NCBI GenBank assembly: GCA_041182185.1
Contig: JBEGOD010000055.1
Location: forward strand, 76,490 to 140,489
Origin: Pseudomonadota bacterium
GTDB lineage: Bacteria; Pseudomonadota; Alphaproteobacteria; Sphingomonadales; Sphingomonadaceae
DNA: 64,000 nucleotides
Direction: 5' to 3'
Notes under the pieces: generated by a model
Told to the model about the DNA's origin: nothing
What the model saw: the letters and a program-made list of their open reading frames with translations, nothing else
Databases searched by the model: none
Position numbers and translations under genes: made by a program
In this document: one piece after another, positions 14,632 to 62,311 of the stretch
Numbering within the stretch: the stretch's first letter is position 1
Layout: each line of letters begins with the position of its first letter

Positions 14632-14644
14632 CGTAGGTGCCTCC

Positions 14645-36037: not shown

Positions 36038-36063
36038 AAACGTATGATTCTGAGGACGCCGCT

Positions 36064-41214: not shown

Positions 41215-41934
41215 TCAGTATTTAATTGTGCCGCCATCGACGACAAGTGTTTGCCCCGTCATGAATGCAGCTTCTTCTCCAGCGAGGAAGAGGATTGCCC
41301 CCAAGACGTCTTTGGGCGTTGCTACCCTTGGGATTGATTGTGAAGCAATAGTTTGCGCTACGACTTCAGGAGCATTTGCCTCAACAACGGCAGTCCCTTC
41401 GGTTCGCGTAAAATTCGGAGCTACGCAGTTTACCGTCAATCCAAATTCACCAAACTCAGAGGAGAGTGATCGAGACATCCCAATAATTGCTCCCTTACTA
41501 GCAATATAGTGAGCCATATTGGGCAACCCCATAAAAAATGTATTCGAAACAATATTTATTATTCGACCCCATTTTTTCTTTTTCATATTTGGAATAGAAG
41601 CTTGGCAGGTGTTAAAAACCGAACTTACATTTGTCGTAATAACCCTATCCCATTCCTCTTTCGTGATCTTTTCGAACGGCTGCATGGGATACACTCCTGC
41701 ATTATTTACAAGAATGTCGATTGGCCCAACTGCCGCTTCGGTATCGCTAAACAATGCCATCACGCTATTTTTGTCACTTACGTCACAATGCGCACGGATC
41801 ATTTCTGCTGATGTGTTGAAGCCGGCGTAAGAGACATCCGCCCCGACAACCGAGAAGCCGCGGGCAGAAAAGGCTTCTGCAATTGCTGCCCCGATACCCT
41901 GAGCACTGCCTGTAACAAGAACCACTTTAGACAT
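41215..41934 (-). CDS. Short-chain dehydrogenase/reductase
   Basis: TGSAQGIG, NNAG, YIASK; AT-rich codon usage. Confidence 0.9.
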   Translation of the reverse strand: MSKVVLVTGSAQGIGAAIAEAFSARGFSVVGADVSYAGFNTSAEMIRAHCDVSDKNSVMALFSDTEAAVGPIDILVNNAGVYPMQPFEKITKEEWDRVITTNVSSVFNTCQASIPNMKKKKWGRIINIVSNTFFMGLPNMAHYIASKGAIIGMSRSLSSEFGEFGLTVNCVAPNFTRTEGTAVVEANAPEVVAQTIASQSIPRVATPKDVLGAILFLAGEEAAFMTGQTLVVDGGTIKY

Positions 41935-41943
41935 GCGCGCCTC

Positions 41944-42717
41944 TCACCAAGCTGTTGTACCGCCATCGACGGCCAAATCAGTGCCGGTTATCCATTTTGC
42001 GTCATCCGATGCGAGAAAGGCTGCGGCGGCGGCCACATCCTCTGGTTGACCAATGCGATCCAACATTATTTTGGATTGCATGGCGCCTGCCCATTCGGGA
42101 TCATCTAGCAGCGCCTTACTCTGGTTCGTCAAAATCAGTCCGGGTGAGATGGAATTGACGCGGATGCCATGTGGCGCGCCCTCCATCGCTAGATGGCGGC
42201 TCATAGCTAGTATTCCCGATTTTGCAGTTGAATGCGCCAAGCCAGGAACAACCTTGTAACAAATATGCGCTGACACAGATGCGGTGTTTATTATAACCCC
42301 TCGACCCTGTTCAATGAATAGAGGCCATATCGACTTACAGGTATGGAAAACTAAATCGACTTCTTCGCGCATCGTCCTCGAAAATGTCTCAAATGACATG
42401 TCCGTGAACCATGCAAAATGCGCCATGGCCGCATTGTTGTATAGTATGTCTATCGCGCCATAAACGGACTTTGCTTTTGCAATAAGCTCGGATACCTGAA
42501 TTGGATCTGTGAGATCGCATTGAATAAACATGGCGTCTGAACCGCCGGCGGAACGAACCGCTTCCAATGCCTCTTCACCACGTGAAGGATCAACATCGCA
42601 GCCTATGACCCTCGCTCCTTCGGCGGCAAAACGGAGGCATGCAGCAAGACCAATGCTACCTCCGCTGCCTGTGATCAAAACCACCTTATCCCGGAGACGA
42701 GAGTGGATGTGGTGCAT
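41944..42717 (-). CDS. Short-chain dehydrogenase/reductase (HxxxK active-site variant)
   Basis: TGSGGSIG, NNAA, NTAS, AHSTAK where YxxxK is expected. Confidence 0.88.
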   Translation of the reverse strand: MHHIHSRLRDKVVLITGSGGSIGLAACLRFAAEGARVIGCDVDPSRGEEALEAVRSAGGSDAMFIQCDLTDPIQVSELIAKAKSVYGAIDILYNNAAMAHFAWFTDMSFETFSRTMREEVDLVFHTCKSIWPLFIEQGRGVIINTASVSAHICYKVVPGLAHSTAKSGILAMSRHLAMEGAPHGIRVNSISPGLILTNQSKALLDDPEWAGAMQSKIMLDRIGQPEDVAAAAAFLASDDAKWITGTDLAVDGGTTAW

Positions 42718-42739
42718 AACTCTCGTCTCCGGGATAATA

Positions 42740-45100
42740 TCAGTAGCGATAGTTCAGGCGGACATACCAAGTTCGCTTGTCGGCATACGCGCGGCCAGCA
42801 TACTCGGGGACGGAACCAAAGAAGCCGGTCGTCCAGTATGTCTTGTTGAACAGGTTATCGACGCCTGCCGTGACTGACATGCTATCATCCTTGGTCGCAT
42901 ACGTCAGACTTGCACTTGCAACCTCGTAGGCATCAACGCGCTCGGAATCGAGGTTAGCTACACCCAAGCCGTTGAAATGCTTGCCGACGCCGTCCATGGA
43001 TGCATTGAACATCAGGCTACCAGCATCCTTCAGTTCGACGCGATAGTTTGCCCCCACGCTGAAGCTGTACTTCGGTGTTGAGACCGGATGGGCATTCAGA
43101 CCAGGCGCATAGCCTGTAAAGTCGGGCGCGAAGATCGGATGAGTGGGATCAGCGCGGGTGTACTCCGCATCGAGAAGACCAAGGTTGCCATAGATCTGAA
43201 GACCCGGAGTTGGTGCCCACGTAATCTCAGCTTCGAGGCCGTTGATCCGCTGATCTGACAACGCCACTGTCTGAGGCGAAATGAGATCGGCGTGATTCTT
43301 GTACTTGCTCGAGAATGCCGTGATGTTGGTCCGTAAGGTGCGGCCAAACCAATCAGCCTTGATACCTGCCTCGAAGGTCTTCACCGTCTCCGGTGCTAGG
43401 AAACGCGACGCTGGAACGGGGTCGGTTGCGCGGTCGCCTTCAAGGTTCCCGGCCTTGTAGCCCGTCGTGTAGGTCGCATAGAGAAGGATATCGCGTGTCG
43501 CCTGCCAGTTCAGGCCCACGCGTGGCGTGAAGCGGCTGAAGTCCTTGCTCGGAAAGACTGGGAAGCCCGGATAGTGGGTCTGCTGGTCCTCGAAGAGCGA
43601 GTCATACCGGACCTTCTTCTTGTCCCAAGTCTGGCGCACGCCTCCCAGCAGGAACAGGTTGTCCAGGACCTCCCATGTGCCGTCGAAATAAAGCGCGTAA
43701 CTCTTCGCGTCCTGGAAAGTGTCCTGGTACGAGCCGCCGAACTTTTCCGTAAAGCCGGGGTGCGCCACGGGAGAGAACTCGACCGGCACACCGATGGTGG
43801 AACCGTATTGCAGCTGCCCCCACTGGTTGCTGAAATAGAACGCCCCAAGGGTATATTTGAAGCGCTCCCCGATAGAACCCGAGAGCTGCAGCTCCTGCGT
43901 GAACTGGTCGTAATCCTCGTCAGTGTCCACGGTGCTGCCGAGTGTGATGCCGAAGATCGTGGAACGGGTGAGGTCGGAACCGAGCTGGGACACGTAATGG
44001 CCATCATAGTGCCGAAAGCCGGAAATCGACTTTAGAGTGCCGATGTCGGTCTCAGCCGAGGCCTTGAACACGATGCCGTAGCCGTCGAAGTTGTGGCCCG
44101 GACGACGCCCGAACCCACCCATATCAGTTAGAGGTTCAAGTGCCCCACGGTTGGCCCCATAGACAGGCGTGAACTTCACCGAGCCGTTTTTGGAAAGAAG
44201 CTGGGCAAGGGACGTCGGATCTGACGGAGCAATCGGGGTCATCAAGTTGGTCCCGTCGTCCTGCTTGAAGACGTCGAGATTAAGTTCAAATTCCACCTTT
44301 TCGTTCGGCTTAAAATAGGTCGCCAGGCGCGCGCCATAGTGCAGAAGCTTCGAAATGTCGTCCTTGATGACCCGGTTTGATGAATCGACCTGCCTCATGA
44401 ATCCGTCGTTCGCAGTGCGGTAGGCGTCGAGCTTAATCGCCAGCTTGTCCTCGATAAGGGGGATGCTGACGTTGCCCTTCACATCGATGCGGTTCCGGCT
44501 GCCAAACGTAACCGAGGCAGACCCTTTGACATCATTGAGGTCTGGCTTACGCGGAACAAATTTGATCGCGCCGACCGTCGCATTGCGCCCATACAGCGTG
44601 CCCTGCGGACCACGCAGTACTTCAACCCGTTCGAAGTCGATCATATCGACATACGCTGCAGCCGTAGACTGGAGATAGATGTCGTCAACGAACACGGCGA
44701 CAGCGTTTTCGGCGTTCCAGTTGTTGTTCGCCCGGCCCGCACCACGCAGGTAGAACTGGGGCGCAGCGAACGAAACGGTGTTCTTTGGTGCCTGAAAATT
44801 GGGAACGATGGACGAGAGATCCATCACGCTCTTAACGTCGCGCTGTTCAAGCTGCTCGCCAGCCACGGCTGAGATCGCGATTGGCACAGCCTGCATGCTT
44901 TCCGAACGCTTACGCGCGGTGACCACGATGTCGACAATGCCCGTGTCTTCGGCCGGTGTCATGCTTGCACTTTCCTGGGGCGCCGCTGTTTGCGCAAATG
45001 CTGGCACTGCAAAAGCAGCAGCGGCAATCACTGCGACGGAGCTTGCCCGCAATAGCGAACGATGAAGTCGCTGAATGGTCTTATGTTGGCTTTGGATCAT
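42740..45100 (-). CDS. TonB-dependent outer-membrane receptor
   Basis: Signal peptide PAFA-Q, DIVVTARKRSE, ERVEVLRGPQGTLYGRN, aromatic C-terminus. Confidence 0.95.
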   Translation of the reverse strand: MIQSQHKTIQRLHRSLLRASSVAVIAAAAFAVPAFAQTAAPQESASMTPAEDTGIVDIVVTARKRSESMQAVPIAISAVAGEQLEQRDVKSVMDLSSIVPNFQAPKNTVSFAAPQFYLRGAGRANNNWNAENAVAVFVDDIYLQSTAAAYVDMIDFERVEVLRGPQGTLYGRNATVGAIKFVPRKPDLNDVKGSASVTFGSRNRIDVKGNVSIPLIEDKLAIKLDAYRTANDGFMRQVDSSNRVIKDDISKLLHYGARLATYFKPNEKVEFELNLDVFKQDDGTNLMTPIAPSDPTSLAQLLSKNGSVKFTPVYGANRGALEPLTDMGGFGRRPGHNFDGYGIVFKASAETDIGTLKSISGFRHYDGHYVSQLGSDLTRSTIFGITLGSTVDTDEDYDQFTQELQLSGSIGERFKYTLGAFYFSNQWGQLQYGSTIGVPVEFSPVAHPGFTEKFGGSYQDTFQDAKSYALYFDGTWEVLDNLFLLGGVRQTWDKKKVRYDSLFEDQQTHYPGFPVFPSKDFSRFTPRVGLNWQATRDILLYATYTTGYKAGNLEGDRATDPVPASRFLAPETVKTFEAGIKADWFGRTLRTNITAFSSKYKNHADLISPQTVALSDQRINGLEAEITWAPTPGLQIYGNLGLLDAEYTRADPTHPIFAPDFTGYAPGLNAHPVSTPKYSFSVGANYRVELKDAGSLMFNASMDGVGKHFNGLGVANLDSERVDAYEVASASLTYATKDDSMSVTAGVDNLFNKTYWTTGFFGSVPEYAGRAYADKRTWYVRLNYRY

Positions 45101-45385
45101 GGAAATCCTCCCCTCCCTTGTTGATTCGCAGTCTCAATGCCTAACCGGCTGGCTGCAATCGCCTATCTTTCGGACGGCGGCAGCTTCGTGTCCTGCCGGC
45201 AGAAAGAAGGAATTTGGTGGAATAGACTGCGAAGTGCACCTCCCGGGTTCGGCCGAAAGATAGGTGCTCGCAATCGCGGCCCTCTGCTTAGGTCTCATTC
45301 ATAAGCATCCGAGTCGGGACCGATTTGCCCATGCAAAACTACCTAAGACTGGGTGTGTCGATGAGTTTGAAGGAGGGATTCGTCC

Positions 45386-46615
45386 ATGGAAGTAGCATTT
45401 TTCATTCCGCCAACTGTCGGTACCCGCGAAGAACTGATGCAAGGTCTAGCGGGTCGTAGAACTGATCTTTATCAAAAGATGCTTGGTGGACTCACTGAAA
45501 TAGCGCAGTTCATGGACGATTTTGGATATTTTGGCATGGGCTTCACTGAGCATCACCTCTCAGTGGAAGGCATGACGCTTTCCAATAGTCCTTCAATGCT
45601 TGGGCTTTATCTAGGACAGCAGACTAAGCACCTGAACTTTGGCGCGCTTGGATATGTTTTGCCCGTCCATGACCCATTGCGGGTCGCGTCGGAAGTGACC
45701 ATGCTGGATCAGATGACGCAGGGCCGAGCATTTGCCGGTTTCGCCCGCGGGGTGCAGACGCGGTGGATTAACACCATGGCGCAGCATCGTTACAGCCTCG
45801 CGGATAACATTACCGATCCTAAGCGTTACGACGACGATCGACGCAAGCTGTTTTACGAGCATCTTGAGATCATTCTTAAAGCTTGGGACAATGATACTTT
45901 TTCGCACAAGGGCGAGTTCTGGACTATTCCAGCGCCAAAAACCGCTTGGCCGGGGCAGCGGATGAGCCGTGAAATGGGTGGGCGTAGTTTAGACGCAGAC
46001 GGAAATCTTGTCGAAGTCGGTGTCGCGCCAGCGATGTACAATCGCAAGCGTCCTTTGATGTTTGAGCCGTTCTCGGTGAGCCACAGTTCCATCGAAACGG
46101 CAGCGTCGAATGGCTTGGTTCCTATCGGGATCATGTGTGATCCCAAAATTGTGTCTGAACAGCTCGATGCGGCTCAGCGAGGATGGGAGAAGGCCGGGGT
46201 TAGCACTAAGCGAGGCGAAAAGGTCGGCTTTGCTCGTTACATGATTGTGGGCGAAACAGACGAAGAAGCGATGGAATTCGCTGAGCTTGCCATGTTTGAG
46301 TGGACCTATTTCTTCGCTCAATTCGGCTTCAACGCCGTGCTGGCCCGGGAAGGCGAAGACTGGAAGAGCATTCCGTCAACCATTCCGGAATTTATTAAGC
46401 GCGGCATTCTCTTCTGCGGCAGCCCGGACACCGTCAACAGGCAGCTCGAAGTTGCGCTGAAAAATATGCCGGTTGAGTACCTTTGGCTGTTTACGGCCAA
46501 CGGCCTGCTCCCTCAGCATATGATGATGAAGCATCTCGATCTTATGTCGCGAAAGGTGTTGCCCAACTTTACGGACAAGATCGGTCCGAATGTGCACCGC
46601 AAAGCTGCCGCCTGA
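45386..46615 (+). CDS. Luciferase-like (LLM) FMN-dependent monooxygenase
   Basis: FTEHH, HDPLRVASE..MLDQMTQGR..GFARG, GSPDTV, KVLPNF. Confidence 0.88.
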   Translation: MEVAFFIPPTVGTREELMQGLAGRRTDLYQKMLGGLTEIAQFMDDFGYFGMGFTEHHLSVEGMTLSNSPSMLGLYLGQQTKHLNFGALGYVLPVHDPLRVASEVTMLDQMTQGRAFAGFARGVQTRWINTMAQHRYSLADNITDPKRYDDDRRKLFYEHLEIILKAWDNDTFSHKGEFWTIPAPKTAWPGQRMSREMGGRSLDADGNLVEVGVAPAMYNRKRPLMFEPFSVSHSSIETAASNGLVPIGIMCDPKIVSEQLDAAQRGWEKAGVSTKRGEKVGFARYMIVGETDEEAMEFAELAMFEWTYFFAQFGFNAVLAREGEDWKSIPSTIPEFIKRGILFCGSPDTVNRQLEVALKNMPVEYLWLFTANGLLPQHMMMKHLDLMSRKVLPNFTDKIGPNVHRKAAA

Positions 46616-46629
46616 CAGGAGCGACACTG

Positions 46630-47505
46630 ATGGATTTCATGAGCCTGTGGAGCGATGTTTATCGCTCCGCATTCGAACAGGGCTATCTCGACGCCAATGG
46701 CATCAAGACTCGTTACATACGGGCAGGTGACAGGTCCAAGCCCAAGTTGATTTTCCTGCATGGAACGGGAGGGCATGCGGAAGCTTTTCTGCGTAACCTC
46801 GATGCGCATGCCGAGCATTTCGATACCGTCCTGATCGACTACTTGGGGCACGGCTGGACCGACAAGCCAGATGTCGCCTACGAGATGCCTGACTATTGCG
46901 ATCATCTCGCTGCCACGATGGATGCCTTAGGATTTTCCAAAGCTTCCATCTGCGGGGAATCGATGGGTGGTTGGATTGCGGCCTGGTTCGCCATTCAAAA
47001 TCCCGACCGAGTGGAACGGCTGGTCCTAAACACCATGGGCGGGGCCACGATGAACTCGCAGGTGATGCAAACCGTATATGAGAAGACCCTTGCAGCCGTG
47101 GAGCATCCGGAGACGCTTACCCGTCCTCGGCTCGAGTGGCTCATGGCAGATCCGTCGGTTGTTACGGATGATCTCGTTGCCTGCCGGACTCGGATTTATG
47201 CCCAGCCGGGCATGAAGGAAACGATGCGCAAAATCCTGTGTTTACAACAGGAGGAGCCGCGCCGACGCAATCTCATGACACCCGACAATATGGGACAGAT
47301 CAAGGCACCGACGCTGGTCATCTGGACCAGCAAGGATCCTACCGCCTCTGTCGAGACCGGACGAGAAATTGCCAGCTGGGTGCCAGGCTCGAAGTTCGCC
47401 GTCATGGAAAATTGCGGACATTGGCCTCAGTACGAAAAGCCGTATGAATATAACAAGCTATCTCTTGGCTTCTTGCTTGATGGCGACGTCCAGGGAGTAG
47501 CTTGA
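46630..47505 (+). CDS. Meta-cleavage product hydrolase, MhpC/HppC-like
   Basis: LHGTGGH, GESMGG nucleophile elbow, CGHWPQYE; ATG 46630; directly upstream of the MhpB homologue. Confidence 0.78.
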   Translation: MDFMSLWSDVYRSAFEQGYLDANGIKTRYIRAGDRSKPKLIFLHGTGGHAEAFLRNLDAHAEHFDTVLIDYLGHGWTDKPDVAYEMPDYCDHLAATMDALGFSKASICGESMGGWIAAWFAIQNPDRVERLVLNTMGGATMNSQVMQTVYEKTLAAVEHPETLTRPRLEWLMADPSVVTDDLVACRTRIYAQPGMKETMRKILCLQQEEPRRRNLMTPDNMGQIKAPTLVIWTSKDPTASVETGREIASWVPGSKFAVMENCGHWPQYEKPYEYNKLSLGFLLDGDVQGVA

Positions 47506-48458
47506 TGCCTGCACAGGCTATCTGCATGGGGCATGGAGGCCTGATGAACTTCCATGAGCTCCTGTCAGGCGACGAAGACCAGGAGGTTCGCTCAGAGCTC
47601 GCCTATGCTCGCGAGCAGGTGGAAACCTATTCGCCTGACCTCGTGGTCAAATTCGGCAATGACCATAACAGCGGCTTCTCGCTCCGTTTGATGCCGGCCT
47701 TCCTTGTGGCCCTAAGAGCACGTACTCTCGGAGATTTCGGAACGACTGCCCAAAAACTGGCGGTTGATGAAACCATCGGGCGTGAGCTTGTGACCTTCCT
47801 TCACGAGGCTGGCGTGGACGTGGCAACATCCTATGATGCGCTCTTCGACCATGGCATGGTCATGGCGCTCGACAAGTTGTTCGAAGAACCAGCGCATGTG
47901 CCTGTTATTCCGGTTTTCACCAATTGCGGGGGCGACCTGCGACCCCCACTCAAGCGATCGAAGGAGCTGGGCAAGGTAATAGGGGCGTTCTTTCGCGACC
48001 ATCATCCCGACCTCAAGGTCTTGTTTATCGGATCGGGAGGACTCTCCCACGACCCCCCTCTACCCATCTTCACAACCGCGCCTGTAGATGTGCAACAGCG
48101 CATGATCGACGGGGTCCAGTGGTCGGACGAGACACTCGCCACTAGGACCGTGAACGTCATTGCAGCTGGCAAGGAGCACGGGCGAGGAGAAGGACCGCTG
48201 CAGCCGCTCAACCCCACTTGGGACAACTGGCTTCTCGACTGTTTCCAGATCGGAGACTTGGAAGCCGTGGTGGCGCTCAGCGACGACGAGGTTATTGCCC
48301 AAGGTGGCCGCGGCGGAAGCGAAATCCGGAACTGGATCGCTGCTCTGTCGGCGCTGGGTGAGTACGGGCGTGAGAGTTACGCGGTGGACCACCGCTTCTA
48401 CCGTGCTTTACCCAGCTGGATAACGGGCTTCGGCCTTCTCCACGCACGTGCCAACTAA
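47505..48458 (+). CDS. mhpB: LigB-family extradiol dioxygenase, 2,3-dihydroxyphenylpropionate 1,2-dioxygenase-like
   Basis: CMGH, NDHNSGF, DHG, SGGLSHDPPLP, PLNPTWD, EIRNWIAA, WITGFG. Confidence 0.82.
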   Translation: MPAQAICMGHGGLMNFHELLSGDEDQEVRSELAYAREQVETYSPDLVVKFGNDHNSGFSLRLMPAFLVALRARTLGDFGTTAQKLAVDETIGRELVTFLHEAGVDVATSYDALFDHGMVMALDKLFEEPAHVPVIPVFTNCGGDLRPPLKRSKELGKVIGAFFRDHHPDLKVLFIGSGGLSHDPPLPIFTTAPVDVQQRMIDGVQWSDETLATRTVNVIAAGKEHGRGEGPLQPLNPTWDNWLLDCFQIGDLEAVVALSDDEVIAQGGRGGSEIRNWIAALSALGEYGRESYAVDHRFYRALPSWITGFGLLHARAN

Positions 48459-48478
48459 GTTATTCTGAAAGGCAAAAA

Positions 48479-49402: not shown

Positions 49403-49408
49403 GGCGGG

Positions 49409-51422: not shown

Positions 51423-51473
51423 CACACTCTCCCGCTTGCTTTGAACCGGGAGATAGATTTGGAGTCGCGCAAA

Positions 51474-51497
51474 GGCACCCGCTGAAAGATAGGTGCC
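51474..51497. promoter_or_regulatory. Inverted repeat GGCACC-N12-GGTGCC in divergent promoter
   Basis: 6-12-6 palindrome between the lactonase and SDR starts. Confidence 0.3.
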
Positions 51498-51548
51498 CTG
51501 CAAAGCTTTAGGGGCAACCTGACGCACTTAAACGGGAGAAACGAAACT

Positions 51549-52310: not shown

Positions 52311-52346
52311 CTGATCGTAATGCTAAGAATTCAGAAGGATACCAGT

Positions 52347-53441: not shown

Positions 53442-53959
53442 CGGAACAAGCCAACCACGCGAGGGTCCTGTGGGAGAAGGGCCAGCTAAAAAACCTGATC
53501 CTCGATTTCGGGTGGGCGCTCGATTCAGGGGATTGGGACCTGTATCGGTCTTGCCTGCATGATCGGGTTCTGATCGATTTCGAACGCCTGACCGGGTTCC
53601 CCGAGGTAGAAGTCAGCGCCGCAGACTGGACCGAATTTGCCCGGCATGCCCTGACCCCTGTCCGCAGGCACCACTCCTATACGAACTTTCGGATCGATGT
53701 GTTCGAAGAGACGGCTCGCGCACGCGTCCATATGGTTGCGCGGCATTTCCACTCCACGGACAATGGCGCTGCCGAGAACACTCAATACGGTTGGTATGAG
53801 TCTACTTTCACCCGGACGGCCGGTGGTGCCTGGAAAATCAGCCGCGTGCGTCATTCCTTCCAATGGGTGTCGGGCAACGCAGGCCTCTTCGACTTCTCTA
53901 AAGAGCCTGTCGCATCGGCCGCAGCGCGGGTCTTCCACCCCGGCAACCGCGTTAGCTGA
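53438..53959 (+). CDS. NTF2/SnoaL-like protein, scytalone-dehydratase-like
   Basis: ALDSGDW, LIDF, RRHH, VARH, GWY...WKI. Confidence 0.75.
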   Translation: MTEQANHARVLWEKGQLKNLILDFGWALDSGDWDLYRSCLHDRVLIDFERLTGFPEVEVSAADWTEFARHALTPVRRHHSYTNFRIDVFEETARARVHMVARHFHSTDNGAAENTQYGWYESTFTRTAGGAWKISRVRHSFQWVSGNAGLFDFSKEPVASAAARVFHPGNRVS

Positions 53960-56732
53960 TCAGGCCGATCTGCCGAGCCTTGAAGACGGCTTCCGAACGC
54001 CGGTTTACGCCTAGCTTGCTGTAGATCTGCTGCAGGTACCATTTCACCGTACCTACAGTGAGGCCCGACTCTTCGGCGATCTGCGAGTTCATCAAGCCCA
54101 TTGCCACCATGAGTAGAATCTCTGCTTCGCGTTCGTTCAAAGCCTGATACTGACCGCCCAGCTTTTCTAGATCGATCGTGGGACCGCGTGGTGGGGTCGC
54201 GGCAGAGGTCAAAGAAGCGATCACTTGTTCGTGGTAGCGCCCGAGTTCGTCCCAGTGCCCCCCAATGCCCAGCTTCATCTGCTCGATCTGTGCGCGAACG
54301 GCACTATTGGCATCTGAGAACAGCCTAAGGAAGCCGCTCTGGGCGCCCGTCTGGATCGCTGATCTGAGCGTCCGATGACATGCCTTTGGATCACCGCTCA
54401 GTATCTGCACGTGCGCCAGTTGAAGCGCGAACCTGATATAAAGGCGAGCGAACTGGTGGGTTTCGAGAAAGCGCATCCAGCGGCGCAGGAGGACGTCTGC
54501 CTCTGAAAGACGGTTTTCGGCAATCGCAAGATATGAGGACGCGAGCGCGCGTCCGGCCATAGCAGTTGTCTGGCCCGGGCCCGGGCAGAACGTGTCGCCT
54601 GCATTCACAAAGTTATTGACGATCGAGACGCGCTTGAGCTCGCTGATGTCCCCCGCCGCCGAAAGGATGCGTAGTCTGTCGATGATAAGGAGCAGGTTCA
54701 GCCGATCGAAATCGCGCGAGAGGGCAAGCTCTGCCCCTTCATCGATAACATTGAGAGCTGCTTCTGACGAGATCAGGTTCGCCAAACGCACCTTGGTGTG
54801 GTAGCCCGCCACCAATTGGTCTACCAAGCCGATCCGCGTGGAAAGTGGCAGAAATTCCTCGACCAAGGCGTCAGCCTCGAGCGTGTGCCCCTGCTCGTAT
54901 GCAAGCTCGGCGAGATGCAGTGCTGGCATTGCCGTGGTTGGGTTAGATCGGCCCACCACGCTGATTGCGGTCTTGAAAGCCTCGTTGAAGATGCTCCCGG
55001 CCTTTGTCAGCTGGCCCAATTGAACATATCCGGCACCAATGATGCAGTCGTGCCAGATCGTGCCCCAACGGTTGTCGTTGCTAACAAAGATCTCTCTCGC
55101 CTTGCCGGATGACCCAATGCTCTGGCTGTTGAACTGCTCTCGCTGGGCGTAAATCAGCGAGGTCTGGCTGACTGCATCTTCGAAGTAGGAGTATTCCCCC
55201 TCCATCGAGAGCCACTGGCGCGCCAAGGCCTCAGCCCGGACCATGTCGTCCTTCAGGATCGCCAGCTGCATTTCGCAGTAAACCTGCTTTCGAAGAACCC
55301 GCTCCATATCGAGGCCAAGTTCTGACCAATGCGTGGTGCGCTGGCTGCTGGTCAAAGCGGCCTTGACGTCGCGAAGTATCCGCTGGGCTTCGCTGAATTG
55401 CCAAGTCAACGTGAGCGTATAGGCCCGTTCCAGCTGAAGTTCCGGGAAGTCGATCAGGATATCCTGCGGAAGTTCAGCGGCATAGCGCAGCAACGTCCCT
55501 TCACGACCCGACTGCACGAGCTTTGACGCCACCTTGTCCAACAACTTCGCCGAGGCAACGGGGTCGCCGGCGGCAAAGATATGCTTCAGTGCCCTAGCTG
55601 GATAGCCGCGCTCACTGAACCATGCCGCGGCCTTTTGATGCAGGAACGATTTCCTATCTGGGTCTCTGCGTGTGACGATAGTTGAAATCGAGTCCGTGAA
55701 AATCTGGTGAAAGCGATACCACCCAGGATCGCCGACGCGCATGATAAAGAGCTGGAGCGTCTCGATCTGCTTGATCAGGGCGGCGCTATCGGACCTTCCC
55801 AGTACGAAGTCGCATAGTTCGGATGAAAATTCTCCCAAAATACCGGTGTCTGCAACGAAGTCCGCCAATCCATCGGGCAGGTTATCGATCACTTCATCCC
55901 TGAGGAATTCTTCGACAGCAGAGCCCGATGCCAGCTGCGGTAGGGCTCCGAAATCACCGTGTCCGGACGTCAGAGCGATCAGGCGTAGCCCGACAGGCCA
56001 GCCTTCGGTCCTGGCGTAGAGATTGTCGATTTGGGTGTCATCGAGCTGCTCCCCGCTAGCCTGCTCGAGAAACATCGTCGCTTCATGGCGATCGAACTTC
56101 AGCTCCTCGACGCTTATCTCACGCACAAGCCCCTGAGCACGAAGCTTGGCAAGCCGAAGCGGTGGAATGAAGCGGGAGCCAATCACGACGTGCAGGAAAT
56201 CGCTTCGATAGTTCAACAGCTGCGAGATCGACTGCCAGACGTCCGCATTGCTAACGAAATGCAAATCGTCGATGAATAGCGTGGTCCGGCGGCCGCTTCG
56301 CTCCAGAGCGTTGAGTATCGAGACGATGGCCGACTTGAGATCGAGGTCAATCTTATAATCCGGAGTAAGCTTCAGCCGCTCATTGATACCTGGATTACCG
56401 CCGGAAAGTGCGGAGACGAGGTGATTAGCGAAAAGGAGTTTGTCGTCGTCACTGTCGTCAAGGGTCAGCCAGGCTACGTTCTCTCCGAGGTCCTTCAAGT
56501 CAGCATAACATTGCCCCAGCAGGGTCGTTTTCCCATACCCCGCCGGAGCTACGATAATCGTGGCAGCAAGTCCTAGTGCGGACTTGATCCGGTCTGCCAG
56601 CGAAGTGCGCTCGATCAGGTCGACTCCATGGGTTTTGGGCGGAGTCAACTTGGCCGCGAGGATGTAGCCGGACAGTCCAGCCTGAATGCTACCAAGCGCA
56701 GATGCCGTGGTTGTATCCTGCATGTCAGGCAA
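53952..56732 (-). CDS. MalT-type (STAND ATPase-LuxR) transcriptional activator
   Basis: APAGYGKTT Walker A, IDDLH, RTEGWPVGL, WYRFHQIF, C-terminal LuxR HTH (TVKWYLQQIYSKLGV). Confidence 0.93.
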   Translation of the reverse strand: MPDMQDTTTASALGSIQAGLSGYILAAKLTPPKTHGVDLIERTSLADRIKSALGLAATIIVAPAGYGKTTLLGQCYADLKDLGENVAWLTLDDSDDDKLLFANHLVSALSGGNPGINERLKLTPDYKIDLDLKSAIVSILNALERSGRRTTLFIDDLHFVSNADVWQSISQLLNYRSDFLHVVIGSRFIPPLRLAKLRAQGLVREISVEELKFDRHEATMFLEQASGEQLDDTQIDNLYARTEGWPVGLRLIALTSGHGDFGALPQLASGSAVEEFLRDEVIDNLPDGLADFVADTGILGEFSSELCDFVLGRSDSAALIKQIETLQLFIMRVGDPGWYRFHQIFTDSISTIVTRRDPDRKSFLHQKAAAWFSERGYPARALKHIFAAGDPVASAKLLDKVASKLVQSGREGTLLRYAAELPQDILIDFPELQLERAYTLTLTWQFSEAQRILRDVKAALTSSQRTTHWSELGLDMERVLRKQVYCEMQLAILKDDMVRAEALARQWLSMEGEYSYFEDAVSQTSLIYAQREQFNSQSIGSSGKAREIFVSNDNRWGTIWHDCIIGAGYVQLGQLTKAGSIFNEAFKTAISVVGRSNPTTAMPALHLAELAYEQGHTLEADALVEEFLPLSTRIGLVDQLVAGYHTKVRLANLISSEAALNVIDEGAELALSRDFDRLNLLLIIDRLRILSAAGDISELKRVSIVNNFVNAGDTFCPGPGQTTAMAGRALASSYLAIAENRLSEADVLLRRWMRFLETHQFARLYIRFALQLAHVQILSGDPKACHRTLRSAIQTGAQSGFLRLFSDANSAVRAQIEQMKLGIGGHWDELGRYHEQVIASLTSAATPPRGPTIDLEKLGGQYQALNEREAEILLMVAMGLMNSQIAEESGLTVGTVKWYLQQIYSKLGVNRRSEAVFKARQIGLIS

Positions 56733-57390
56733 ATTGTCCCAGATCCAAGCCGGTCACCCCCACTTTTAGGTTAGGCAGCTCCCTGCTGAATGCCAGAGCT
56801 TCTGCCTCGATCACTGCAGTACCCCGGATGATCAAGATAGGACAACCTACACGCCCTGCAAGTTCGGCGCAAAAGGCCGTGCAAGCAACATCGCCCTGTT
56901 TGTCAAGGATATCACACCACGCGATGGCATCGGCCCCACTTGTTTGCAACTCATAATCGAGAGCAAGCGAGACTAGCTCAAGGGCACCGGGCGCCTCCCT
57001 GCTAATCACAGCAGGCATTATGTGCCCAGGAGTGACCAGATCCTCAGAGCGGCTGGAGCGGTCACCCAGCGTGTTCAACGTAAGGGCTCGTTCTGAAGTG
57101 GAAATGCCAGTCTCGGTGCATCGTGCGGCCTCTACGCTCGTGAAGTAAGTGGAGGCGGCCCTATCCAGTGAGAGCTTACGCATAGGATAGAGCTGCAACG
57201 CATAGGCTCGCTCTGGCCTCATTGCCGCTGAGATAATCCCACGCCCATGTGTTGCCATAACATTGACTTCGTCGGGCGAAATGGTCGCGGCGGCCTTGAA
57301 AAATATGGCTCGTCCACGACCCGACAACGCGTTCTGGTCAATCAGAATGGCAAGGCGGCTTGCGGGCCTGTCTTCAACCAACTCCTTCAC
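56725..57390 (-). CDS. RibB (DHBP synthase)-fold protein with degenerate catalytic motifs
   Basis: Keeps VNVMATHGRG, TSVEA..TGIS..ERALT and LVTPGHIMP; lacks the acidic RENEGD loop and the GHTE motif. Confidence 0.72.
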   Translation of the reverse strand: MKELVEDRPASRLAILIDQNALSGRGRAIFFKAAATISPDEVNVMATHGRGIISAAMRPERAYALQLYPMRKLSLDRAASTYFTSVEAARCTETGISTSERALTLNTLGDRSSRSEDLVTPGHIMPAVISREAPGALELVSLALDYELQTSGADAIAWCDILDKQGDVACTAFCAELAGRVGCPILIIRGTAVIEAEALAFSRELPNLKVGVTGLDLGQFA

Positions 57391-57574
57391 ACATTTCTCT
57401 CCTGCGATCTGGTGTGCGCCAACATCCTACGGTCGACGATGAACCAACCGTGGATGAAGCTTCATGACCAACTTTGGTATCTGATGGCAGACTAACAACC
57501 CGCCAAAGGAAAGGTGCGCGGGCAGTAAAATCCGTCGAAGCAGGCGCAACGCAGAATGGAAGAGCCTCTAGCCC

Positions 57575-58117
57575 ATGTCCGAAGTTCAGACCGCCAACTT
57601 TTCTGAATCTGGCAAATATAGTGGGGGCGATGAGCAAGACCCCAATGACGTCCAAATAGGCCTTAACTTCCGCATGGCGATGAGGCGGCTGGCAGCGGCC
57701 GTCTCGGTAATTACCACCAGTAGTGAAGGTGAATGGGCAGGGCTTGCCGCGACCTCCGTGAGTTCCTTATCCATGGAGCCGCCTTCACTGCTGGTCTGCG
57801 TCAATAAGAGTGCCTCAATCCGCCCTCTGCTCAAGGCGGGCCAGCCTTTCGCCGTCAATCTTCTCGGCCAGGATCATAGCCACATATCCAAGGCGTTCGG
57901 AGGAGCGGCAAAGGGACACGAGCGGTTCCAGACTGGCGACTGGTCGGAGGGCAATAACGGTATCCCGACACTCGACGACGCAATTGCTGTTGTGGAGTGT
58001 GAGGTCGATGGCGAAGTCGACTACGCGAGCCACACAATCGTCATTGGACGGGTGACCCGTAGCCACCTTTCGCCGAGCGAAGAGCCGCTTATCTACTGCA
58101 ATGGACGCTACCTATGA
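57575..58117 (+). CDS. Flavin reductase (HpaC/DszD-like)
   Basis: FRMAMRRLAAAVSVITT, SVSSLSMEPPSLLVC, HTIVIGRV, PLIY. Confidence 0.92.
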   Translation: MSEVQTANFSESGKYSGGDEQDPNDVQIGLNFRMAMRRLAAAVSVITTSSEGEWAGLAATSVSSLSMEPPSLLVCVNKSASIRPLLKAGQPFAVNLLGQDHSHISKAFGGAAKGHERFQTGDWSEGNNGIPTLDDAIAVVECEVDGEVDYASHTIVIGRVTRSHLSPSEEPLIYCNGRYL

Positions 58118-58908
58118 CTGACCTTTCACACGAAAAGCTGGGAAGCGTCCTCTTCGGCGCACTCCGGAGCCGGCGGTCCATTCCGCCATTGAGCAAGCAG
58201 TATCCTTCGCTGACCATCGATGATGCCTATGCGATCAGCCTCGATTTCCTCTCGCGTCGCCTGAAGGACGGGGAAAAGGTCGTCGGCAAAAAGATCGGCG
58301 TTACCAGCAAGGCCGTGCAGGACATGCTCGGCGTGCACCAGCCCGACTTCGGCTTCCTGACCGACTGGATGTTCGTCGAGGGCGACATCGAAATCGACGG
58401 CAAAGCAATGATCGCGCCCCGCGCCGAAGCCGAAATCGCCTTCATCCTCAAGAGCAGTCTCAACGGTCCCGGCGTGACCGCCGCCGACGTGCTTGCCGCG
58501 ACCGAGAGCGTCGCCCCCTGCTTCGAGATCGTCGACAGCCGGATCGATGACTGGAAGATATCGATCGTCGACACGGTGGCAGACAACGCATCCTGCGGCG
58601 TCTACGTGATCGGAAAGGAACGGCTCGACCCGGCCGGGCTCGACCTGCCGAACCTACACGTGACAGTGACCAAGAACGGCGCCCCCCTGTCGGAGGGCTA
58701 CGGCCACGCCGTGCAGGGTGATCCGGCCCAGGCCGTGGCTTGGCTGGCGAATACGCTGGGCGCCTATGGCGTCACGCTGAACGCTGGCGACGTGATTCTC
58801 TCGGGCAGCCTCGTGCCGCTCGCCGACGCCGTGAAGGGCGACCGTTTCGAAATGACCCTGAGCAATGCAGGCGGCCCGCTGGGCACCTGCGTTGCCAACT
58901 TCGTTTAA
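58114..58908 (+). CDS. mhpD: 2-oxopent-4-enoate hydratase
   Basis: [46 protein letters not shown]. Confidence 0.88.
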
Positions 58909-58919
58909 GGAAAAGAGCA

Positions 58920-59858
58920 ATGGCGCGCGTGAAGGCCGCGATCATCGGTTCGGGCAACATCGGCACCGACCTGATGATGAAGATGATCAAGTACCCGCAG
59001 AACATGGAACTCGCCATCGTGGTGGGAATCGACGAGAAGTCGGAAGGGCTCGCCATGGCGCGCGAGCACGGCATCGCGACGACCCACGAGGGCATCGAGG
59101 GGCTGAAGGCGCACCCGCTCTACAACGAGATCGGCATCGCCTTCGACGCGACCTCGGCCTATGCCCACAAGGTGCATGACGAGGCCCTGCGCGCCGACGG
59201 CATCCAGGTGGTCGACCTCACCCCGGCCGCCATCGGCCCGTTCACGGTGCCGCCGGTCAACATGAGCCAGCACCTCGACCAACCCAACGTCAACATGGTG
59301 ACCTGCGGCGGCCAGGCGACCATCCCGATGGTCGCCGCCGTCGCCCGCGTCTCCGACAAGCTCCACTACGCCGAGATCGTCGCCTCGGTCTCGTCGCGCT
59401 CGGCCGGGCCGGGCACGCGCGCCAACATCGACGAGTTCACCCGCACCACCGCGCGGGCGATCGAGGTGGTCGGCGGCGCGACCAAGGGCAAGGCGATCAT
59501 CATTCTCAACCCGGCCGAACCGCCGATGATCATGCGCGACACGGTATTCACCCTCAGCGAGGGCGGCAGCGAGGACGCCATCCGCCGTTCGGTGGAAGAG
59601 ATGGTCGCCGAAGTGCAGAAGTACGTTCCCGGCTACCGGCTGAAGCAGGAAGTCCAGTTCGAGCGCTATGGCGACAACAACCGCCTGAAGATCCCCGGCA
59701 TGGGCGAATTCACCGGCATCAAGTCGATGATCATGCTCGAGGTCGAGGGCGCGGGCGATTATCTGCCGAGCTATTCTGGCAATCTCGACATCATGACCGC
59801 CGCGGCCAAGGCCACCGGCGAACTGCTAGCTGCGCGCCGCATGGCTGCAACCGCCTGA
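58920..59858 (+). CDS. mhpF: Acetaldehyde dehydrogenase (acylating)
   Basis: [46 protein letters not shown]; ATG 58920. Confidence 0.95.
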
Positions 59859-59872
59859 AAGGACGTCATTCC

Positions 59873-60919
59873 ATGAAAGCTAACTTCAACGTCGATGCGG
59901 GCGACAAGCTCTACATCCAAGACGTGACGCTGCGCGATGGCATGCACGCCGTACGCCACATGTACGGGATCGACCATGTCCGCGCGATTGCCCAAGCGAT
60001 CGAGGCTTCGGGAGTGGACGCGATCGAAGTGGCCCATGGCGATGGCCTGTCCGGCGCCAGTTTCAACTACGGCTTTGGCGCCCATACCGATTGGGAATGG
60101 CTCGAAGCCGTGGCTGAAGTGCTGGACAAGTGCGTCCTGACCACGCTGATCCTGCCGGGCGTCGGTACGGTCGAAGAATTGCGCCGTGCTTATGACATCG
60201 GTGTCCGCTCGGTTCGCGTGGCAACCCATTGCACCGAGGCCGACGTTTCCAAACAGCACATCGGTATCGCTCGTGACCTTGGCATGGACGTGGCGGGCTT
60301 CCTAATGATGAGCCACATGATCGAGCCGGAAGTGCTCGCCCAGCAGGCTCTCCTGATGGAAAGCTATGGCGCACAGTGCGTTTACGTCACCGACAGCGGC
60401 GGCGCGCTCGACATGGACGGGGTCCGCGCCCGGTTCGAAGCCTATGACCGGGTGCTGAAGCCCGAAACCCAGCGCGGGATGCACGCGCACCACAACCTGT
60501 CGCTTGGCGTGGCCAATTCGATTGTTGCGGCGCAGTGCGGCGCGGTGCGAATCGACGCCAGCCTGACCGGGATGGGCGCGGGCGCGGGCAACGCTCCGCT
60601 GGAAGTGTTCATTGCCGCTGCCGACCGCAAGGGCTGGAACCACGGCTGCGACGTCAACTTGTTGATGGATGCCGCAGAAGACCTCGTGCGTCCGTTGCAA
60701 GACCGCCCGGTTCGCGTCGATCGCGAGACGCTGAGTCTCGGCTATGCGGGTGTCTATTCCAGCTTCCTGCGTCATGCCGAAAAGGCCAGCGAAACTTACG
60801 GAATCGACACGCGCGAAATCCTGCTCGAACTTGGCCGCCGCAAGATGGTTGGCGGGCAGGAAGACATGATCGTCGATGTCGCGCTTGATATGCTGAAGTC
60901 TGAGCCCCTTGGGGCCTAA
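59873..60919 (+). CDS. dmpG: 4-hydroxy-2-oxovalerate aldolase
   Basis: [47 protein letters not shown]. Confidence 0.95.
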
Positions 60920-61849: not shown

Positions 61850-62311
61850 ATGCAAACATACGACGACCCGCAGGTGCTTGCGCGGCTTGCCGCGCTGAAA
61901 ACTATGACCGTGAAGGAGCTCAAGGAACAATGGGCTTCGCTGATGGGGACCGAGGCGCCGAACAACAGCAGCCCATACATGATCCAGCGCCTGTCCTAAC
62001 GGATCCAGGAGCTGGCATGGGGCGGGATGAACAAGGCCTTACTGCGCAATCTCGACGCCCTGGCCGATGAATACGAAGGCAAGAAAGTCCGGAAATCGGT
62101 AATTGCCGATCCTCGCAACCCGATTATTGGCACACGCCTGATCCGTGAGTGGGACGGGATCGAGCATACCGTGACGGTGATGAAGGATGGGTTCGACTGG
62201 CAAGGACGGCGGTTCAAATCACTGTCAGCGGTGGCGAGAACGATCACCGGCACACGCTGGAACGGTTATCGCTTCTTTGGCCTTCGCCCGGCCGAAGGCG
62301 GTGCACGATGA
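61850..62311 (+). pseudogene. DUF2924 family protein interrupted by in-frame TAA
   Basis: MQTYDDPQVLARLAALK...IQRLS*RIQELAWGG...GTRLIREW...SLSAVARTITGTRWNGYRFFGL; TAA at 61997-61999. Confidence 0.8.

Follow-up and report, generated by a model that had tools for sequence, protein, structure and literature searches.

Background

The coupling of Baeyer-Villiger oxidation to ester hydrolysis as a source of ring-cleavage substrates has a precedent in 4-hydroxyacetophenone monooxygenase, which works with an esterase, and the Baeyer-Villiger conversion of an indanone to dihydrocoumarin occurs in fluorene degradation. In Caenibius, a luciferase-like monooxygenase (LLM) was shown to carry out the Baeyer-Villiger oxidation of progesterone (PMC12239570), and in Sphingobium sp. 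AntQ-1 (pANTQ-1) the LLM sphantq_4473 and the hydrolase 4474 were proposed, from omics, to function in anthraquinone degradation (PMC9836352). The subject of the present analysis is a gene island in a 64,000-nucleotide stretch (the window) of contig JBEGOD010000055.1 (C55; positions 76,490 to 140,489 of the forward strand) from a bacterium of the Sphingomonadaceae, the assembly of which is 86% complete and 2.8 Mb in size. The island, at positions 41215-60919 of the window, encodes an LLM together with hydrolases, an extradiol dioxygenase and a relative of L-2-hydroxyglutarate dehydrogenase (L2HGDH).

An earlier note on this DNA had presented the island as a candidate undescribed pathway, in which hydroxytetralones or naphthoquinones are opened by a Baeyer-Villiger reaction and degraded to 2-hydroxyglutarate (2-HG), pyruvate and acetyl-CoA. 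The adjective overstated the case, because routes that pair a Baeyer-Villiger monooxygenase (BVMO) with a hydrolase to unmask a catechol from aromatic ketones have been published and one of LLM type has been proposed in Sphingobium (PMC9836352); no described cluster of this composition was found in the literature. The analysis suggests, with a probability that we put at about 0.5, that the compound degraded by the island is an aryl ketone, either ring-fused or bearing an ortho-hydroxyl, or else a lactone related to these, and that it is broken down through the LLM and a lactonase followed by meta-cleavage.

Gene classes were assigned by Pfam and NCBIfam profile searches of the window proteins (Table 1), and every class that the earlier note had named was present. 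Its statement that the cluster has neither an MhpA-type hydroxylase nor a ring-hydroxylating dioxygenase was also borne out, since searches for PF01494 (FAD_binding_3, MhpA type) and PF00355 (Rieske) gave no match within C55:117704-137408, the span of the island. The closest Rieske genes were in the steroid region of the contig.

The monooxygenase and its reductase

The best solved sequence relative of the LLM was 3,6-diketocamphane 1,6-monooxygenase (3,6-DKCMO; E 8e-10, residues 43-355), which was the sole solved match to align over the full length, with approximately 19% identity. An AlphaFold (AF2) model built from 32 homologues had a predicted local distance difference test score (pLDDT) of 89.7. 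Its top fold matches were RslO1, 3,6-DKCMO, luciferases and the OX domain of PuwE, a polyketide synthase/nonribosomal peptide synthetase, with TM-scores (target-normalised) of 0.77-0.85 against RslO1 and 3,6-DKCMO. SsuD/MsuD, SfnG and F420 enzymes (Mer) ranked lower, although the margins were modest and the identities all fell between 15 and 19%. The sequence E55-H56-H57, which we take to be the EHH motif of LuxA with its catalytic His44, was invariant across the family. Sequence and fold thus sorted the protein with the type II BVMOs and luciferases, in line with the BVMO role assumed earlier, and not with the SsuD/NTA-type LLMs. In the BVMO and luciferase-type relatives a flavin peroxide acts as nucleophile on a carbonyl, so that Baeyer-Villiger or Dakin-type chemistry is favored over aromatic hydroxylation. 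These observations are an indication, not proof, that the LLM is the oxygenating subunit of a two-component (type II) BVMO.

The flavin reductase encoded downstream scored below the cut-offs of the RutF, HpaC and HsaB-type models. Flavin reductase genes were also clustered in Sphingobium lactosutens, locus L017 and Parasphingopyxis algicola, and the protein is presumed to be the reductase partner of the LLM.

NCBIfam gave only weak subfamily matches for the LLM and the database names of its relatives were generic; the 276 database matches included many environmental homologues, mostly without a specific name. The gene contexts of more distant homologues were consistent with a role in converting ketones to lactones or esters. 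On a Peribacillus plasmid (L020), a 40% identical homologue was followed by a metallo-beta-lactamase (MBL)-type lactonase, a RibB-like gene and a gene for riboflavin kinase; CoA-dependent diacid genes and one for a flavin reductase lay in the vicinity. A Streptomyces homologue was followed by an alpha/beta hydrolase without detectable similarity to that of the window, and in one environmental genome an alpha/beta hydrolase lay directly upstream of the LLM relative. Another environmental genome had the array P450, short-chain dehydrogenase/reductase (SDR), LLM and reductase, which follows the classic sequence in which hydroxylation and then dehydrogenation precede Baeyer-Villiger oxidation. The recurrent adjacency to non-homologous hydrolases and lactonases adds to the case for such a role. 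Among plasmid proteins (PLSDB) the homologues were at most 40% identical, and their contexts were taken as weak evidence. In gammaproteobacteria, 45% identical homologues were found 2.4-3.6 kb upstream of acetoin-type E1alpha and E1beta genes; a two-component system lay between them and the association was judged to be coincidental. A link to the Caenibius progesterone LLM was looked for and none was found.

The hydrolases and the ring-cleavage dioxygenase

The beta-propeller protein of the SMP-30/SGL family closely resembled Rpa3624 (PDB 7RIS/8DJF; E 2.6e-106 over residues 4-304), and the four Ca2+-binding and catalytic residues of Rpa3624 were all kept, as E15, N123, N172 and D229. A lactone-hydrolyzing role, one of the assignments made previously, is therefore well supported at the level of enzyme class. 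Rpa3624 is a Ca2+-dependent lactonase that acts on hydrophobic gamma-, delta- and epsilon-lactones and on some esters, aryl esters among them, with dihydrocoumarin as the best of the substrates compared here; the enzyme was inactive on gluconolactone, coumarin and acyl-homoserine lactones and was inhibited by 2-hydroxyquinoline (PMC9843451).

The hydrolase encoded directly 3' of the LLM in every cluster seen resembles the meta-cleavage product (MCP) hydrolases. Its best PDB matches were all MCP hydrolases (DxnB2, CumD, CarC, HsaD, BphD and MhpC), and an alignment of the window protein and five orthologues with E. coli MhpC showed that the Ser-Asp-His triad and the equivalents of Arg188, Cys261 and Trp264 were kept. 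The residue before the nucleophile, Asn109, was replaced by Glu in all six (window, L001, L003, L005, L007 and L017), which have G-E-S-M/L-G-G (GESMGG in the window protein) at this point. Because the canonical G-N-S-M-G-G motif is missing, the protein was classed as MCP-hydrolase-like. A substrate of different charge, or an activity like that of an esterase, may lie behind the substitution. The best NCBIfam match was HsaD (128 bits), and no hydrolase model listed reached its cut-off. The start at 46483 given earlier was replaced by the ATG at 46630, which is preceded by an AGGAG ribosome-binding site and gives a length that matches the called orthologues.

The LigB-type protein shared 35% identity with E. 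coli MhpB along its whole length, the conserved His and Glu motifs of the two being in register, and matched the MhpB structure 8K04 with E 2e-55. Its score against the NCBIfam model for 3-carboxyethylcatechol 2,3-dioxygenase (NF009910) was 282 bits with a cut-off of 291. The naming of MhpB and MhpC homologues in the earlier note thus holds as far as the catalytic residues are concerned, whereas both proteins missed the equivalog cut-offs and the hydrolase carries the exchange of Asn109.

The minimal clusters held exactly two hydrolases, in keeping with a need for lactone opening followed by C-C hydrolysis. The third hydrolase of the window, a carboxylesterase of the hormone-sensitive-lipase (HSL) family, had PDB esterase matches at E 1e-52 and fell below the cut-off of the NCBIfam LipP1 family; it was absent in L001, L002, L004 and L039.

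The same enzymes could serve a coumarin or 8-hydroxycoumarin-type pathway, the main rival explanation, in which an Old Yellow Enzyme (OYE) reduces the C3=C4 bond, the lactonase opens the dihydrocoumarin, and the MhpB, MhpC and MhpDFE-type enzymes degrade 3-(2,3-dihydroxyphenyl)propionate. The LLM and its reductase would then be a new phenol or coumarin hydroxylase or act on a substituent, and the L2HGDH-like enzyme would be incidental. Reduction of 8-hydroxycoumarin by an OYE is established for XenA of P. putida 86. OYE, lactonase, MhpB and MhpC homologues are all core members of the cluster, the dioxygenase comes near the cut-off of the 3-carboxyethylcatechol model, and Rpa3624 shows high activity on dihydrocoumarin besides the inhibition by 2-hydroxyquinoline (PMC9843451). 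However, this route leaves the LLM, which is the best-conserved protein of the cluster, the L2HGDH-like enzyme and two or three of the SDRs without a role, and release of succinate would leave a conserved L2HGDH-type site unexplained. The LLM is nearest to carbonyl-attacking enzymes, and we know of no LLM that acts as a phenol ortho-hydroxylase. We consider a coumarin pathway unlikely.

The L2HGDH-like enzyme

The DAO-family protein matched PDB 3DME (Bordetella Bp3253) with E 4e-129 and Drosophila L2HGDH (dmL2HGDH) with E 2e-40. The 2-oxoglutarate/L-2-HG site of dmL2HGDH consists of Ser88, His92, Tyr289, Leu299, His302 and Arg393, all of which are conserved in Bp3253 (PMC10726252). In an alignment read by eye, S48, H52, Y247, L255, H258 and R315 of the window protein matched all six. 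Five of these were also kept in five cluster orthologues and two stand-alone homologues, while the match of L255 comes from a single alignment. The score against the NCBIfam LhgO model (NF008726) was 223.6 bits with a cut-off of 299, and the match covered only residues 6-272. Since the six residues are kept, the label LhgO-like that the protein had been given is soundly based as far as the binding site goes, though the curated cut-off for LhgO was missed.

The gene was a core member of every cluster examined. In five cluster-carrying genomes the copy in the cluster was the best family copy, and in four of these it was the sole copy; among 150 sampled relatives without the LLM, 12 had a member of the family.

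The cluster of S. lactosutens carries additional genes, inserted between SDR3 and the MalT-type regulator gene (L030, G003:C61:44000-56000). They encode a two-subunit 2-oxoacid decarboxylase, an aldehyde dehydrogenase, a MaoC hydratase, a RipC/CitE-type lyase, two acyl-CoA dehydrogenases and two family-III CoA-transferases, one of which resembles mesaconyl-CoA isomerase. A VanA-type Rieske oxygenase gene lies beside the LLM gene (L005:8375-9613). Judged from the gene content, this mesaconyl/citramalyl-CoA-type module would fit the disposal of a branched 2-oxo-dicarboxylate, and the inserts are thus in agreement with a DAO product that is a 2-oxo diacid derived from the side chain.

If the acid released from the ring-cleavage product is 2-HG, the simplest fit is a hydroxylated C4 side chain and hence a C10 substrate of the tetralone or naphthoquinone type. 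This is the basis of a narrower version of the proposed ketone pathway, contained in it and counted within its probability, in which the substrate is a juglone-type naphthoquinone or a hydroxytetralone. The OYE and an SDR would form 4,8-dihydroxy-1-tetralone, the LLM and the lactonase would convert it to 4-(2,3-dihydroxyphenyl)-4-hydroxybutanoate, and the MhpB and MhpC homologues would release 2-HG. In the same manner ortho-hydroxy benzo-fused ketones, such as reduced juglone, lawsone or plumbagin, or fungal tetralones, might be taken by a new family of type II BVMOs and an Rpa3624-type aryl lactonase, without a hydroxylase, to 3-(hydroxy-carboxyalkyl)catechols and on to L-2-hydroxyglutarate. 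Several observations speak for this version, 1) it is chemically sound and the simplest way to 2-HG, 2) the complete L-2-HG site of the DAO protein, including the arginine for the C5 carboxylate, favors a hydroxy-diacid of C5 length and, with it, a C4 side chain, 3) the OYE and SDR3, the solved relatives of which are generic SDRs of cyclic alcohols and ketones (cyclohexanol dehydrogenase and levodione reductase), suit the conversion of a cyclic ene-dione to a hydroxy-ketone and 4) the module of S. lactosutens suits a methyl-branched C5 diacid, as would arise from a 2-methyl-naphthoquinone, and is accompanied by a VanA-type demethylase.

On the other side, there is no sequence pointer to a naphthalene skeleton, juglone, isosclerone or any naphthoquinone, and indanone, chromanone and acyl-phenol substrates fit most of the genes equally. 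The carriers of the cluster are aquatic, sediment or marine-alga bacteria, for which juglone is no obvious substrate, and the SnoaL_4 protein is dispensable in several clusters. The solved-structure matches of SDR3 and SnoaL_4 included no relative of naphthol reductase or scytalone dehydratase; the SnoaL_4 search returned one uncharacterised protein and nothing else, and these searches neither support nor exclude such an analogy. The juglone version, like the wider hydroxylase-free route from quinones and fungal tetralones to L-2-hydroxyglutarate, is accordingly put forward as tentative and, on its own, unlikely.

Conservation and acquisition of the island

Conservation of the cluster was examined across genomes, and the gene set was kept together in at least nine, in one of them with shuffled order. 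It was found in Novosphingobium sediminis, Sphingobium algorifonticola, S. lactosutens, P. algicola, Aquisediminimonas profunda and several metagenome-assembled genomes (MAGs), and the complete genomes of P. algicola and A. profunda had the same arrangement. LLM orthologues that were 82-92% identical had the same neighbors each time in N. sediminis, S. algorifonticola, S. lactosutens and several MAGs. The contig with the shuffled cluster, on which the LLM was 62% identical, held the same families in the order LigB, SDR, Abhydrolase_3, flavin reductase, DAO, MalT, LLM, hydrolase, OYE, SGL, TonB receptor, SDR, SnoaL_4, MhpD and MhpF. Recurrence of the set across genomes, even when reordered, is more than chance, and the shuffled cluster is strong evidence for functional coupling.

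Ten genes constitute the core, namely those of the receptor, at least one SDR, the LLM, the hydrolase, LigB, DAO, SGL, SDR3, OYE and MalT. S. lactosutens departs from this pattern, in that no receptor gene adjoined its LLM gene and no OYE gene turned up in the vicinity. The HSL esterase, SnoaL_4 and SDR2 count as accessory members. The LLM was approximately 92% identical between genomes compared with approximately 66-85% for its neighbors in the same cluster, a difference that points to unusually strong constraint or to more recent exchange of that gene.

One could suppose that there is no single pathway and that the island is a patchwork in which genes for detoxification and scavenging, independent of one another, travel together. 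The E1/E2 and MhpDFE genes are demonstrably later additions and the accessory genes vary between genomes. Yet the ten core genes occur together across at least nine genomes, even in altered order, they share one dedicated regulator and one receptor, and their junctions are operon-like. The chance that a patchwork is the whole explanation appears very slim.

The island is rare among related genomes. The LLM turned up in none of 150 genomes sampled across 112 genera of the family, and in neither of two further species from the host's genus. The GC content at third codon positions (GC3) was 0.43-0.69 over the stretch from SDR1 to the flavin reductase, with the lowest values of the island in SDR1 and SDR2 (0.43-0.49), compared with 0.75 for the E1/E2 block and 0.76-0.90 for MhpDFE, both of which resemble the core genome. 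The low GC3 argues that the stretch from SDR1 through the flavin reductase, 41215-58117, is an acquired core, and on these compositional grounds we consider it to be horizontally transferred. A nucleotide search of the PLSDB plasmids with the whole region matched the mhpDFE end and nothing else, so that no described catabolic plasmid carries the cluster. In a search of sequencing runs, the DNA was seen again in several studies' metagenomes, of freshwater, aquatic and drinking-water origin; two RNA runs matched, each with at most 8% of words. The carriers are bacteria of planktonic freshwater, drinking water, sediment and marine algae, and five cultured strains, P. algicola, A. profunda, N. sediminis NBRC 106119, S. 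algorifonticola TLA-22 and S. lactosutens, are among them, which makes the hypothesis directly testable.

To the left of the island, at 35395-37089, are a TetR regulator gene and a gene for an NAD-dependent epimerase/3beta-hydroxysteroid dehydrogenase (3beta-HSD)-like protein, with a low GC of 0.52. Together with the serine recombinase gene at 62149-63621, this pair brackets a compositionally mosaic region.

The lower pathway genes and the steroid neighborhood

The proteins of the set resembling pyruvate dehydrogenase (PDH) have close paralogues elsewhere in the genome; for E1alpha and E1beta these are copies on contig C11 with 85-86% identity, and for E2 a copy on C40 with 81%. No match to E1alpha, E1beta or E2 was found in the orthologous loci L001-L007. 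The set is probably a recruited paralogue that handles pyruvate from MhpE, but its membership in the pathway is uncertain. MhpD, MhpF and MhpE were 73%, 95% and 96% identical, respectively, to a second copy at C55:59628-62378 (part of the span C55:59179-62378), 75 kb upstream, which adjoins a gene for an HsaD-like hydrolase and another flavin reductase gene. These identities appear to indicate a recent duplication or gene conversion between the lower pathways of the island and of the steroid cluster. The core-like GC3 and the close paralogues together argue that the PDH-like set and MhpDFE are recent recruits or products of gene conversion and lie outside the transferred core. The "extra PDH" and MhpD/E/F, which complete the pathway in the earlier note, are thus additions to the acquired module and not part of it.

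The shared contig raises the possibility of an accessory pathway for steroids or other polycyclic compounds, in which the LLM oxidizes a ketone of the D ring or the side chain, as the Caenibius LLM does with progesterone, the product is opened by the lactonase or esterase, and the MhpB-like protein and MCP hydrolase act on an aromatic A ring as analogues of HsaC and HsaD. The contig also carries the HsaD-like/flavin reductase/HsaEFG-like set and several KshA-like Rieske genes, MhpF and MhpE are 95-96% identical to the HsaEFG-like set, HsaD is the best NCBIfam match of the hydrolase, and a LuxR-type activator, as found in the island, is typical of steroid clusters (PMC12239570). Against this, GC3 shows that the island differs in origin from the steroid genes, no steroid genes were seen among the inspected flanking genes of the orthologous loci examined, and the scheme has no A-ring hydroxylase and no role for the L2HGDH-like enzyme. 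Saro_3594 of N. aromaticivorans, which presumably lies on a plasmid, encodes a homologue of the Caenibius progesterone LLM, and no N. aromaticivorans plasmid record matched the window LLM at E 1e-30. A steroid function is in our judgment highly improbable.

Elsewhere in the window, four Rieske-domain genes are present at 4188-15682 (C55:80677-92171) and were taken as KshA-like from a Rieske-domain search alone, in keeping with a steroid catabolic region in that part.

Proposed pathway

In the proposed scheme, the TonB-dependent receptor would import the compound, and the OYE and SDRs would bring an enone, quinone or alcohol to the oxidation level of the ketone substrate. The LLM, with FMNH2 supplied by the flavin reductase, is predicted to insert oxygen beside the carbonyl, forming an aryl lactone or ester; the BVMO/luciferase type of the enzyme follows from sequence and structure, whereas the substrate is conjectural. 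The Rpa3624-like lactonase, aided by the HSL esterase where it is present, would then open the lactone. Opening would free a phenol beside an existing hydroxyl and so generate a 3-(carboxyalkyl)catechol without a ring hydroxylase. The MhpB-like dioxygenase is expected to cleave this catechol, and the MCP hydrolase to yield 2-hydroxypenta-2,4-dienoate and the side chain as a dicarboxylic acid. To judge from the binding site, the acid may be L-2-hydroxyglutarate or a close 2-hydroxy-dicarboxylate, which the L2HGDH-like enzyme would oxidize to the 2-oxo acid. MhpD, MhpE and MhpF, assigned like the preceding enzymes by type from their sequences, would turn the dienoate into pyruvate and acetyl-CoA. 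Expression would be controlled by the MalT-type activator, possibly with the RibB-like protein. The roles of the OYE, the SDRs and SnoaL_4 in this scheme are pure inference.

Several points weigh against the proposed ketone pathway, 1) the function of the LLM is unreadable from the fold alone at approximately 19% identity to 3,6-DKCMO, and aromatic oxidation by an LLM exists in hexachlorobenzene monooxygenase, 2) the 45% identical gammaproteobacterial homologues stand in contexts without ring-cleavage genes, 3) the MCP-type hydrolase could itself open the lactone and its Asn to Glu change is atypical, 4) DAO homologues of approximately 60% identity stand alone in unrelated contexts, so that the enzyme could serve general 2-HG repair and need not report on the side chain, 5) the OYE, the dihydrocoumarin-active lactonase and the MhpB and MhpC homologues would fit a coumarin or 8-hydroxycoumarin route equally and 6) the whole scheme is predicted from the genes.

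Organization of the region

The genes and their positions are collected in Table 1. On the minus strand, the TonB receptor gene is followed by SDR2, SDR1 and the PDH-like genes, practically without gaps. The LLM operon on the plus strand diverges from this receptor operon, and the SGL gene faces the plus-strand operon of SDR3, OYE and SnoaL_4; its start is most likely at 51425. The tight or overlapping junctions between genes argue for operons. The RibB-like gene, which is translationally coupled to MalT, is a further member of the cluster.

Table 1. Features of the island and its borders, with positions in the 64,000-nucleotide window
Feature	Positions	Strand	Basis of assignment
PDH-like E2, 307 aa, without lipoyl domain	37880-38803	-	Pfam/NCBIfam
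PDH-like E1beta with N-terminal lipoyl domain	38790-40145	-	Pfam/NCBIfam
PDH-like E1alpha	40145-41200	-	Pfam/NCBIfam
SDR1, classical SDR	41215-41934	-	Pfam adh_short/adh_short_C2
SDR2, classical SDR	41944-42717	-	Pfam adh_short/adh_short_C2
TonB-dependent receptor	42740-45100	-	Plug + TonB_dep_Rec_b-barrel
Luciferase-like (LLM) FMN-dependent monooxygenase, 409 aa	45386-46615	+	PF00296, 107 bits
Alpha/beta hydrolase, MCP C-C hydrolase type (MhpC/BphD/HsaD-like), 291 aa	46630-47505	+	
LigB-type class III extradiol dioxygenase, MhpB-like	47502-48458	+	PF02900, 102 bits
Abhydrolase_3 carboxylesterase, HSL family	48479-49402	+	Pfam 2.9e-60
DAO-family FAD enzyme, L2HGDH/LhgO-like, 368 aa	49409-50515	+	Pfam/NCBIfam
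SMP-30/SGL six-bladed beta-propeller lactonase, 306 aa	50505-51425	-	Pfam/NCBIfam
SDR3	51549-52310	+	Pfam
Old Yellow Enzyme (OYE) ene-reductase	52320-53441	+	Pfam; NemA subfamily model 328 bits
SnoaL_4/NTF2-like protein	53438-53959	+	Pfam
MalT-type STAND/LuxR regulator	53952-56732	-	GerE, TPR_MalT, NTPase domains
RibB-like (DHBP-synthase fold) protein	56725-57390	-	PF00926, 95 bits
NAD(P)H:flavin reductase (Flavin_Reduct)	57575-58117	+	PF01613, 9e-40
MhpD, 2-oxopent-4-enoate hydratase	58114-58908	+	DmpE-type model 349 bits, cut-off 409
MhpF, acetylating acetaldehyde dehydrogenase	~58905-59858	+	NCBIfam equivalog above cut-off
MhpE, 4-hydroxy-2-oxovalerate aldolase	59873-60919	+	NCBIfam equivalog above cut-off
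Large serine recombinase, beyond MhpE	62149-63621		

Receptor orthologues with 72-85% identity adjoined the LLM in L001-L004 and L007, and receptor genes flanked it also in L039 and L040; none was found beside it in S. lactosutens (L005). The receptor is presumed to import the substrate. SDR1 and SDR2 matched Pfam with E 1e-52 to 1e-59, and the best NCBIfam match of SDR1 was an SDR-type pyridoxal 4-dehydrogenase, below cut-off. Orthologues of SDR1 were present in most clusters and of SDR2 in some only. SDR3 was present in every cluster, OYE in all but that of S. lactosutens, and SnoaL_4 in some only. A role for almost every gene had been claimed for the pathway; several orthologous clusters, however, lack SnoaL_4 and the HSL esterase, which are therefore not essential steps.

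The MalT-type regulator scored 295 bits against the NCBIfam MalT model, below the cut-off, and the RibB-like protein was below the cut-offs of all rib models. The overlapping pair of genes was kept in five genomes, those of the window host, S. algorifonticola, S. lactosutens, a Rhodospirillaceae MAG and P. algicola (L027, L028, L029 and L039). The RibB-like protein may assist the regulator as a partner that senses a ligand or a flavin. In P. algicola the flavin reductase gene follows the pair in the same operon.

Comparison with known systems

If the proposed ketone pathway is correct, the island would provide the first physiological function for this LLM clade, for the Rpa3624-type lactonases, for the short L2HGDH homologues of the Bp3253 type and for a RibB-like partner of MalT. 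A route that releases L-2-HG would be the first catabolic pathway with 2-HG as a stoichiometric intermediate of aromatic degradation, returned to the tricarboxylic acid cycle by a dedicated L2HGDH-type enzyme. Freshwater sphingomonads would then reach meta-cleavage from aromatic ketones or quinones without a ring-hydroxylating oxygenase, which would bear on how oxygenated polycyclic aromatic hydrocarbons (oxy-PAHs), quinones from plants and fungi, and compounds resembling coumarin are turned over in waters. Type II BVMOs are, in addition, rare and sought-after biocatalysts.

The closest parallel is the island of Sphingobium sp. AntQ-1, likewise from a sphingomonad, in which an LLM gene adjoins that of an alpha/beta hydrolase and the two were proposed to act as type II BVMO and lactone hydrolase on an aromatic ketone or quinone. 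There too a catechol would be formed without a ring-hydroxylating dioxygenase and enter meta-cleavage (xylE, mhpDEF), and a TonB-type receptor is encoded nearby. AntQ-1 differs in that its cluster uses a further BVMO, which is of type I, together with phthalate genes and a XylE-type dioxygenase, whereas the window cluster has the MhpB and MCP-hydrolase types, a beta-propeller lactonase, an OYE and the L2HGDH-like enzyme. No Sphingobium relative of the window LLM exceeded 29% identity among the PLSDB plasmids, the inclusion of pANTQ-1 in that database not being established.

The camphor type II BVMOs (the 2,5- and 3,6-diketocamphane monooxygenases with Fred, on the CAM plasmid of P. putida) are also two-component FMN-dependent LLMs with a separate reductase, for which an SDR or P450 makes the ketone and the lactone is then hydrolyzed. 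The window LLM is longer (409 aa compared with approximately 378 aa), shares approximately 19% identity, and would act on a substrate that ends as an aromatic catechol and not on an alicyclic terpenoid. The mhp genes of E. coli (MhpABCDFE) have in common with the island the LigB dioxygenase, the MCP hydrolase, the hydratase, the acetaldehyde dehydrogenase and the aldolase, but the island lacks MhpA, MhpR and MhpT and has the LLM, lactonase, OYE, SDRs and L2HGDH-like enzyme. The quinoline ("8-hydroxycoumarin"), coumarin and melilotate pathways share an OYE (XenA type), lactone opening, 3-(2,3-dihydroxyphenyl)propionate and cleavage of the MhpB/MhpC type; unlike the window cluster, they use Rieske or FAD hydroxylases and have neither an LLM nor an L2HGDH-like enzyme.

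The DAO protein shares the DAO-fold FAD architecture of the L2HGDH family (dmL2HGDH 8W75, Bp3253 3DME and E. coli LhgO), of which its nearest member, Bp3253, is itself uncharacterised. It is shorter (368 aa) than L2HGDH and LhgO, and, as a core member of an aromatic catabolic island, it would be neither a partner of CsiD nor a repair enzyme. The lactonase differs from Rpa3624 of Rhodopseudomonas palustris in that its gene is embedded in a catabolic cluster. What is new in the island is the combination of a distinct, unstudied LLM clade with an Rpa3624-type lactonase and MhpB-type cleavage, the presence of an L2HGDH-type enzyme as a core member, and the coupling of a RibB-like protein to a MalT regulator.

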